Below are positions 55,947-57,102 of a stretch of 64,000 bases of DNA, in pieces. Each line of letters starts with the position of its first letter. The stretch's first letter is position 1. The translations under genes and the position numbers were made by a program. The notes beneath the pieces are model-generated. The model worked only from the letters and a program-made list of their open reading frames with translations, had not been told where the DNA came from and did not search any database. This stretch comes from a plasmid, in assembly GCF_054482525.1 (NCBI RefSeq), contig NZ_JBTHVG010000007.1; one strand, written 5' to 3'.

Positions 55947-56327
55947 TCATGCGAAAAGTATGGTTATGATAAAAAAGCCTAAAGCTGTCATGATGAGGGA
56001 GCCAATGACGTGAACAAGTACAGACGTCAAAGCCCATATATAATTTCCCGCCTGGAGTAATGCGAATACTTCAACAGAAAATGTAGAGAAAGTACTCAGA
56101 CCTCCACAAAGTCCCGTTGTTATCATTAATTTCCAAAAAGGATCAAGGTGTGGTTGTCGTAAAAAGTACGCCAACGCAGTACCAATAATTAACCCGGCAA
56201 GGAGGTTCACCACCAGTGTACCTGGAGGTAGATTTGGAAAAAGACTGTTAAAGCGTGTGGACAGTAACCAGCGCAGAGTACATCCAACAGAACCGCCGAT
56301 AATGACGGCAAAAAGTGATTTAATCAT
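55947..56327 (-). CDS. crcB: CrcB/Fluc fluoride ion channel
   Basis: 126 aa, four TM segments, conserved LSTFSTFSVE motif. Confidence 0.85.
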   Translation of the reverse strand: MIKSLFAVIIGGSVGCTLRWLLSTRFNSLFPNLPPGTLVVNLLAGLIIGTALAYFLRQPHLDPFWKLMITTGLCGGLSTFSTFSVEVFALLQAGNYIWALTSVLVHVIGSLIMTALGFFIITILFA

Positions 56328-56667
56328 GTACCCCTCATAAAATAATTTTTTATCGTAACAATATCAGAATATGTTCTCATTTGACTGATATTGTTAATTT
56401 ATATCCTTTGACTACATGCAAGATAAGGGAAGGTTCTATTTATTGACATTAATACCCTCGACAATTGCTGAGCAGAAGCCCCCACGACAAGTGACAGAAT
56501 GACAACATCTACAGTGGGGAGCGTTTTATCGATGAACAAGCAACCAAGAAGTAACACGGCATAGGTGACGACAATGCCAGTAAGCATAGAAATAACAAAA
56601 ACGTGAGCTTTCATCATTCCTCCAGAATAACCCCGACGTGTAAGCCTGGGGGATTGGCACAATAATG

Positions 56668-57102
56668 TCATTTAAAGGCAGACTTTCCAGCAAATTGCGC
56701 CGATGAACCCAGTTCATCCTCAATTCTCATAAGCTGGTTATATTTTTCAATACGCTCACCCCGGCATGGAGCTCCCGTTTTGAGATGACCTGCGCGCATT
56801 GCAACTGTCATATCGGCGATAAAGCTGTCCACTGTCTCACCACTGCGGTGTGAGATAAAGGTGCCCCAGTTGTTGTCATGGCAAAGTTGTACCGCATCAA
56901 AGGTTTCACTCAGGGAACCAATCTGGTTGAGTTTAATCAATGCTGAATTGGCAAGGTTTTCGTCAATGCCGCGCTGAATATACTTTACGTTGGTCACAAA
57001 CAGATCGTCGCCAACCAATTCTATCTGCTCTCCCAATGCACCATGCAGGATTTTCCATCCAGCCCAGTCATCTTCAGCTACCGTTAAGGGCAGGAAGATC
57101 AA
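56668..57102 (-). pseudogene. eno: enolase 3' fragment (about the C-terminal 144 codons)
   Basis: [10 protein letters not shown]...[13 protein letters not shown]...[49 protein letters not shown] matches the enolase C-terminal domain; no room for the N-terminal 290 aa before sitD. Confidence 0.8.

Follow-up and report, generated by a model that had tools for sequence, protein, structure and literature searches.

A probable stripped remnant of a mobile fluoride-resistance unit around the Fluc-Ec2 gene of ColV/ColBM-type Escherichia coli plasmids

Described fluoride operons and the plasmid locus

The FRM operon of Enterobacter cloacae (ppaC-uspA-eno-gpmA-crcB-orf5249) is induced through a fluoride riboswitch and confers high fluoride resistance, as knockouts and complementation have established (PMC5533749), and cassettes of the FRM type are mobile among Enterobacterales (PMC5971314). 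The CrcB protein Fluc-Ec2 is a highly F- selective channel that assembles as a dual-topology dimer; its source is given as an 'E. coli virulence plasmid' (PMC3755343, Table 1). Here we analyse positions 55756-57381 of a 64,000-nucleotide stretch of plasmid DNA (RefSeq assembly GCF_054482525.1, contig NZ_JBTHVG010000007.1; the whole stretch is called the window below), where crcB and a piece of an enolase gene (eno) lie between shiF, the aerobactin-linked gene of a major facilitator superfamily (MFS) transporter, and sitD of a ColV/ColBM-type F plasmid. This segment is very probably the stripped remnant of a mobile fluoride-resistance unit, in which crcB would now be expressed by read-through from the neighbouring sit genes. 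An initial annotation, made from the sequence, had suspected the relic of a fluoride-resistance cassette; the suspicion is supported by plasmids pN24a and pMS20654, which hold the undeleted cassette at the identical plasmid site, one 4,228-bp deletion apart from the window.

The undeleted ancestor follows the same logic as the FRM operon, a riboswitch driving a spare pyrophosphatase and a spare enolase, a universal stress protein and the CrcB exporter. FRM operons have gpmA where the window lineage has a gene for a membrane protein of ~60 amino acids (aa), and, unlike the FRM type, the window lineage has no P-type ATPase gene after crcB. Between FRM-type and window-lineage cassettes, eno is ~71-77% identical at the nucleotide (nt) level and CrcB 69-73% at the aa level. 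The co-linear FRM-type layout of ppaC-usp-eno-crcB behind one riboswitch is present in pN24a, pMS20654 and a transposon of Rosenbergiella (locus L011); in the window, crcB and the eno tail are all that is left of it. The core features of the window segment are the following.

55947-56327, minus strand: crcB, intact fluoride channel gene of 126 aa (= wild-type Fluc-Ec2)
56356-56396, minus strand: conserved hairpin in the spacer between the small open reading frame (ORF) and crcB, 11-12 bp, -14 kcal/mol, z = -3.0
56399-56614, minus strand: gene for a small two-helix membrane protein of the 'orf59' family, 71 aa with a frameshifted tail, conserved ATG at 56614
56668-57078, minus strand: enolase remnant, the last 136 codons and stop of a cassette enolase of 426-431 codons (limits set by homology)
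57077-57078, no strand: deletion junction with GC microhomology, from the alignment to pN24a (L018); the same junction is obtained against eno of L005 and the transposase gene (tnpA) of L009
57079-57348, plus strand: 3' remnant of the tnpA of the outer Tn3-family element, ~90 codons with internal stops, ~92% identical to the tnpA ends of Pantoea (L009) and Enterobacter (L010) plasmids

The undeleted cassette, the deletion and the genes left behind

The E. coli ColBM/ColV-type plasmids pN24a (L018) and pMS20654 (L019) show a fuller arrangement at the same site, from shiF to sitD. Their order is crcB, the small ORF, eno, usp, the gene of a Mn-dependent pyrophosphatase (ppaC), a fluoride riboswitch, a resolvase fragment and a 1.7-kb transposase fragment; the pN24a riboswitch matches RF01734 at L018 5131-5205 with 43.8 bits. 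Window positions 54300-57078 align to L018 28-2806 and window positions 57077-61100 to L018 7035-11058. In these two blocks the identity is 99.8-99.96%, and the dinucleotide GC is common to both, so that the window equals the pN24a arrangement minus 4,228 bp. Lost with this segment were the riboswitch, ppaC, usp, the first ~290 eno codons and 1.4 kb of an already dead transposase gene. The undeleted segment was found in 24 of 5,426 complete E. coli genomes, and a third variant exists among E. coli genomes, whose deletion is a different one and takes away about 1 kb more of eno. A premature stop at eno codon 17 (KIVA*EILDSRGNP) in the undeleted plasmids (L018 ~3640-3690; L019 ~8730-8776) indicates that decay of the spare enolase had begun before the deletion. 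RefSeq calls a 414-aa eno in these plasmids, from a downstream start that reads ATT/Ile.

The crcB product is recognised over its full length by Pfam CRCB (PF02537; 93.9 bits, cutoff 32.9; model positions 2-103 of 103) and also by NCBIfam NF010792 (175.8 bits, cutoff 125) and TIGR00494 (108.4 bits, cutoff 80.45). It is the same 126-residue sequence as Fluc-Ec2 (YP_001481330.1; PDB 5A43, 6B24, 7KKR and others) except at R25, which is K in the PDB chains next to the point mutations under study; R25K is an introduced lysine substitution of the Fluc-Ec2 work (PMC3755343). The RefSeq protein WP_001318207.1 is identical in pAPEC-O1-ColBM, pS88 and pN24a. Five residues are essential for F- transport in Ec2 (N41, F80, F83, H106, T114; PMC5636608), and CrcB proteins share a motif in the third transmembrane helix (GxxGGxTTFSTFxxE; PMC3755343). 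All five residues and the motif, here GLCGGLSTFSTFSVE, are present in the window translation, and disabling substitutions in the pore motif were looked for and not found. Carried over by sequence identity from the published Fluc-Ec2 work, the known F- selective conduction should hold for the window CrcB. The family models and this identity confirm the intact crcB of the initial annotation and its reading as a fluoride protein; what the annotation lacked is that this copy has already been characterised biophysically as Fluc-Ec2. The Fluc-Ec2 papers considered name an E. coli virulence plasmid as the source and no more; what is added here is the genomic setting of the gene, a riboswitch operon decayed down to this one working gene.

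The eno ORF (56668-57102, minus strand) matches Enolase_C at positions 158-293 of 296 (E=7.7e-59), far from the poor alignment that would have spoken against an enolase, and no Enolase_N domain was found in it. It aligns to residues ~288-425 of solved enolases and scores 197.9 bits against TIGR01060, below the cutoff of 300, covering positions 288-422 of 425. Homology to full-length cassette enolases stops at 57078, not at 57102: the first 8 codons of the ORF, TTG start included, are antisense Tn3-family transposase DNA. A truncated enolase had been correctly recognised earlier, but its length of ~144 codons has to be reduced to 136 native ones. The earlier explanation for the missing 5' part, namely that sitD begins at 57570, is wrong, since ~490 bp lie between the two and the break is the deletion junction with the Tn3-family transposase remnant. 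RefSeq also lists the piece as a pseudogene lacking its N-terminus.

The fragment begins just past the conserved 'LIEDGL' strand and accordingly has neither the N-terminal lid nor the Glu acid/base residues, and only one of the three metal ligands. On its domain content the piece would be an enzymatically dead fragment and not a functional enolase; the earlier suspicion of a non-functional enolase is borne out by the absence of Enolase_N and the TIGR01060 score below cutoff. Its native codons carry neither stop nor frameshift, and the window lineage has accumulated 12 synonymous and 1 nonsynonymous changes, with a ratio of nonsynonymous to synonymous rates (dN/dS) of 0.03 against L011. The undisturbed frame and the 12:1 synonymous excess indicate that the deletion is recent when set against the divergence of the cassette.

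No match to the fluoride riboswitch model RF01734 was obtained at E<=10 in 55400-57700 (cmscan, permissive filters), and none at the gathering score anywhere in the 64-kb window. This covariance-model search agrees with the initial reading that no recognisable fluoride riboswitch lies upstream of crcB. A riboswitch hidden in the AT-rich spacers was rejected as a candidate, cmscan having returned noise only (microRNA and small nucleolar RNA models on a palindrome at 55828-55881).

The spacing of ~340 bp between crcB and eno had been estimated correctly, but the gap is not empty: it holds the conserved small ORF 56399-56614 of the orf59 family. Its start ATG 56614 is conserved and is accompanied by a Shine-Dalgarno sequence GGAGG at 56619-56623. 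A longer ORF of 90 aa (56399-56671, with an ATGA overlap with the eno stop) was rejected because L005 and L008 have no counterpart of ATG 56671. When 1.84 billion representatives were searched exhaustively with a profile, 17 orf59-family proteins were found in all, and no Pfam, NCBIfam or PDB match to the family was detected. Relatives of the window protein were found in L005, L006, L008, L011 and L013-L016, the last four forming a set with 37-53% identity:

L013: orf59 after ppaC-usp-eno, behind a fluoride riboswitch
L014: orf59 after ppaC-usp-eno, behind a fluoride riboswitch
L015: short contig, orf59 directly after the 3' end of an enolase gene
L016: orf59 (675-863) alone behind its own riboswitch (407-478) and a terminator-like hairpin (~513-548); next to it a divergent ppaC-usp-eno-gpmA unit with a second riboswitch

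The family consists of hydrophobic proteins of ~60 aa, and its dN/dS of 0.08-0.37 indicates purifying selection. The window copy has lost 1 nt two codons ahead of the native stop, so that a 15-residue tail stands in place of the last two residues, and glycine is changed to aspartate at G29, which is invariant in the family, and at G36, which is nearly invariant; this copy looks damaged and may be decaying too. An origin of orf59 as a fragment or relative of CrcB was rejected (hhalign probability 2.7%, no PDB relative). Every member with a readable context lies in a fluoride-riboswitch unit, as a rule directly following ppaC-usp-eno, and we lean towards regarding orf59 as an undescribed family of dedicated fluoride-response genes, whose product might contribute to fluoride tolerance as a new factor or act together with Fluc channels.

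Transposon frame and relatives of the cassette

The segment resembles Tn3-family passenger transposons in its terminal inverted repeats (IRs) of ~38 bp, beginning GGGG and ending ACGCYAAG, and in a tnpA 3' end that runs into the right IR. Complete relatives, from Pantoea (L009) and, with a fluoride cassette, from Rosenbergiella (L011), have tnpA, a resolvase gene and 5-bp duplications. The window element differs from such transposons: it is non-autonomous, with ~90 tnpA codons, and is a nested composite with an inner IR of a different subtype and a 6-bp repeat. Its frame is made up as follows.

55750-55755, no strand: AATTTT direct repeat beside the left outer IR, candidate target-site duplication, read directly
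55756-55793, plus strand: left terminal IR (38 bp) of the outer Tn3-family element, with the 28-nt core; this end is common to L006
55828-55881, no strand: perfect 23-bp palindrome with an 8-nt loop, 100% complementary, 3' of crcB and before the left transposon end
55885-55909, plus strand: inner IR remnant (25 nt) of the Rosenbergiella L011 type, ATGGAGCGAAATTCTATCCTAAGCG, corresponding to positions 15-40 of the L011 IR
57344-57381, minus strand: right terminal IR of the outer Tn3-family element; the outer end of this IR is the exact point where homology to L009 and L010 breaks off
57382-57387, no strand: AATTTT direct repeat beside the right outer IR, read directly

The 28-nt core GGGGGGYGAGGGCCAGTGATGTAAAAAA occurs exactly twice in the 64 kb, in inverted orientation (55756-55783 and 57354-57381), where shuffled sequences give an expectation of 0. 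Aligned by eye, the two outer IRs match at ~34 of 39 positions with one gap. The tnpA remnant contains 3 in-frame stops and is described by RefSeq as 'Tn3 family transposase, internal stop, missing N-terminus'. Within window segment 55756-57381 no resolvase gene was found; full transposase and resolvase genes are present in L009 and L011. Related locus L006 retains a near-complete inner IR at the same place, and homology of the window to L011 stops at 55885. An inner IR remnant of the L011 type within outer ends of the L009/L010 type means that the fluoride transposon is nested inside a second Tn3-family element. The simpler reading of 55756-57381 as one transposon was dropped because the tnpA remnant and the outer IRs are of the L009/L010 type and the inner IR is of the L011 type.

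As RNA, the palindrome at 55828-55881 folds with -44.5 kcal/mol (z=-11.3), and no U-tract follows it. In L006 only its distal arm is present, which suggests that the palindrome arose by a recent inverted duplication and replaced the outer part of the inner IR.

The AATTTT repeat flanking the outer element measures 6 bp, and those of the relatives 5 bp (TTCAC in L009, AATGA in L011). A search with the joined flanks (55520-55755 and 57388-57620) for an empty site in the 5,426 E. coli genomes gave nothing that spans the junction. The outer element is likely to have inserted here as a unit. The flanks themselves (55568-55755 and 57388-57569) are a patchwork of short insertion sequence remnants (IS3-like, IS21-like ISEc12 and ISL3-like ISEc38).

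Outside E. coli, the closest cassette is that of Rosenbergiella metrosideri JB07 (L011); over window 57078-55885 it is 90.6% identical at the nt level. With positions 57077-57250 in the query, a distant DNA search had matched thousands of Tn3-family ends and was rerun without that part; the Rosenbergiella transposon was found by a CrcB scan of genome contigs, which returned two loci in all. This Tn3-family transposon carries tnpA (split into two ORFs), the resolvase gene tnpR, a riboswitch, ppaC, usp, eno, orf59 and crcB, and it has 38-bp IRs and the 5-bp duplication AATGA. A second, orphan fluoride riboswitch at L011 10507-10576 (minus strand) is directed back at crcB. It lies within an inverted segment resembling a Pantoea plasmid (89.7% to L004 265-3578), which starts at an internal transposon IR (~10420-10458), so that the 12-kb Rosenbergiella element bounded by the AATGA duplication is a mosaic in its own right.

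Rosenbergiella, Pantoea and Citrobacter all have related intact cassettes, and the FRM-type version, with gpmA instead of the small ORF, is found on Citrobacter and Pantoea plasmids. RF01734 is present in L002-L006, L008, L011, L013, L014 and L016. L005 and L008 show the order riboswitch-ppaC-usp-eno-small ORF without crcB. The cassette of L006/L007, which has the closest relative of the window crcB, has decayed independently: riboswitch, small ORF and crcB are kept, and ppaC and eno persist as fragments. Among E. coli genomes, a search for this copy gave the ColV-type ones and no others. This cassette (1-5480 and 6780-8882) adjoins genes resembling ybtP, ybtQ, ybtX and ybtS (two ATP-binding cassette transporters, an MFS protein and a chorismate-binding enzyme).

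Present expression, plasmid carriage and meaning

Taken together, the original unit would have been the cargo operon of a Tn3-family transposon, riboswitch-ppaC-usp-eno-gene for a ~60-aa membrane protein-crcB. The probable order of events is nesting in a second Tn3-family element, insertion into the plasmid, loss of the transposition genes and then the 4.2-kb deletion. Left over would be a dead enolase tail, a small membrane-protein gene that looks damaged, and an intact crcB that lets F- out of the cytoplasm. With the sensor lost, crcB would no longer be fluoride-inducible through its own leader. Anatomy, ancestry, the deletion and the identity of the channel are shown here; how crcB is transcribed at present, and any benefit of the plasmid gene to the host, are inferred.

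57570-61019, minus strand: sitDCBA operon, directly upstream of the relic, proposed source of read-through

From the stop codon of sitD to the relic, the scan detected no terminator-like site. The relic has 5 promoter-like matches, compared with 4.2 in shuffled sequence; the promoter and terminator counts were not above those of shuffled sequence and were not used as evidence. Plasmid pS88 carries the identical relic, and transcripts of all three relic ORFs have been detected in it. Quantitative reverse-transcription PCR of pS88 genes in urine gave in vivo fold changes of 776 for sitA, 140 for sitD, 18.7 for eno, 9.7 for ORF16 and 6.1 for crcB, and ex vivo fold changes of 84, 26, 8.0, 4.1 and 4.2, respectively (PMC3438092). 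The common strand with sitABCD, the lack of an intervening terminator and an induction in pS88 that falls with distance from the sit promoter together point to read-through, and crcB is most probably transcribed in this way from the iron- and manganese-regulated sitABCD operon. A weak internal promoter in the spacer before crcB may add to it. This spacer (56328-56398) is 95% identical among the window, L006 and L011, compared with ~90% for the flanking genes, and it contains a -35/-10-like match at 56397-56368, of a kind that is not above chance; with its hairpin, it may be an attenuator or an internal promoter/operator. The outcome would be a low, fluoride-independent expression of crcB that supplements the riboswitch-controlled chromosomal crcB.

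The window is part of an F-type plasmid with the aerobactin (iucABCD) and sitABCD loci. Four Rfam matches indicate an F-type conjugative backbone and a hok/sok module:

4195-4271: AS-traI
13536-13621: AS-traG
32710-32821: FinP/traJ 5' untranslated region
38768-38944: sok

The 2.2 kb surrounding crcB and eno are found at 100% identity in hundreds of plasmids. With at least 80% of this 2.2-kb query covered, the relic is present in 735 PLSDB records and in 771 of the 5,426 complete E. coli genomes, and its carriers include pAPEC-O1-ColBM and pS88. RefSeq gives the order MFS transporter (shiF), crcB, a phosphopyruvate hydratase pseudogene 'missing N-terminus', a Tn3-family transposase pseudogene and sitD. 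The region is thus already publicly annotated, and its history is what is new here. Some ColV-type plasmids have a partial relic only, for example window 56947-57700 adjoining the gene of a malate dehydrogenase, or a crcB from which the eno tail is missing. That such partial relics differ between plasmids implies that decay is ongoing in several directions.

The whole relic, crcB included, could be silent or neutral junk between the selected aerobactin and sit loci. We consider this possible though rather unlikely. The fluoride sensor and the fluoride-inhibited enzymes are gone, the small ORF is frameshifted and has Asp for Gly at two conserved positions, and further deletions have removed crcB itself from some ColV plasmids. 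E. coli already has a chromosomal crcB, 53% identical to the plasmid gene (PMC4723317), and the near-100% identity among plasmids reflects recent common descent and not selection. On the other side, crcB is the sole cassette gene that is fully intact in both independent decays, those of the window and of L006/L007, and its transcripts are detectable in pS88 (PMC3438092). Its dN/dS against relatives is ~0.12, although most of that divergence is older than the deletion.

The two other explanations are both highly improbable. In the first, the plasmid crcB would encode a factor of chromosome/plasmid condensation ('camphor resistance') and help to maintain large plasmids, as suggested for the plasmid core of neonatal meningitis E. 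coli (NMEC). The gene does belong to the conserved core of NMEC plasmids resembling those of extraintestinal pathogenic E. coli, where it is annotated 'supercoiling and camphor resistance protein' (PMC4723317), and it has been kept in ~770 complete E. coli genomes while its neighbours decayed. Against this stand the results on exactly this protein, which has been purified, solved by crystallography and found to be a channel with high selectivity for F- (PMC3755343, PMC5636608), its ancestry in a fluoride-riboswitch operon, and its co-inheritance with iuc and sit on a small segment, so that its conservation can be hitch-hiking.

In the second, the enolase ORF is a working, regulated virulence gene; Lemaitre et al. 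proposed that pS88 ORF 17 aids siderophore synthesis in urine by supplying phosphoenolpyruvate (PMC3438092). Apart from the known iron systems, that ORF had the strongest induction in urine (8-fold ex vivo, p=0.04; 18.7-fold in vivo), and 136 native codons without stops or frameshifts could be read as a gene in use, but it encodes only the last ~32% of an enolase, lacks Enolase_N and the first 157 positions of Enolase_C, and owes its TTG start and first 8 codons to the deletion. The induction is explained by the place of eno, 490 bp past sitD and in the same orientation, and the clean reading frame by the youth of the deletion.

Several observations weigh against the preferred reading, that of a stripped fluoride-resistance unit with crcB under sit read-through. 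The nonsense codon 17 of eno is present in the undeleted plasmids too, and that the change was a deletion and not an acquisition is argued from parsimony and from the microhomology at the junction. The flanking repeat has 6 bp where the relatives have 5 bp, and no empty site was found in the E. coli genomes. The case for read-through is correlative, the fold changes of crcB in pS88 not being individually significant (p=0.05-0.8; PMC3438092), and the scan speaks neither for nor against an internal crcB promoter.

The principles of fluoride resistance are left unchanged by these results, the relic being a decayed case of a known operon type that is mobile on Tn3-family transposons. They give an origin to Fluc-Ec2, one of the two model fluoride channels, as the sole survivor of a transposon-borne riboswitch operon that decayed on ColV/ColBM plasmids. 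Two published readings are corrected: the urine-induced 'putative enolase' is a dead fragment, probably transcribed by sit read-through, and the product of the plasmid crcB is a channel for fluoride rather than a factor that condenses plasmids. The family of small membrane proteins associated with fluoride riboswitches is seemingly unstudied and is the one really new lead. The complete transposon in a member of the Erwiniaceae associated with nectar or plants, the immobilised complete operon in 24 E. coli genomes and the stripped relic in ~770 form a natural series, with which the importance of a spare enolase, a spare pyrophosphatase and riboswitch control for host-associated E. coli could be tested.

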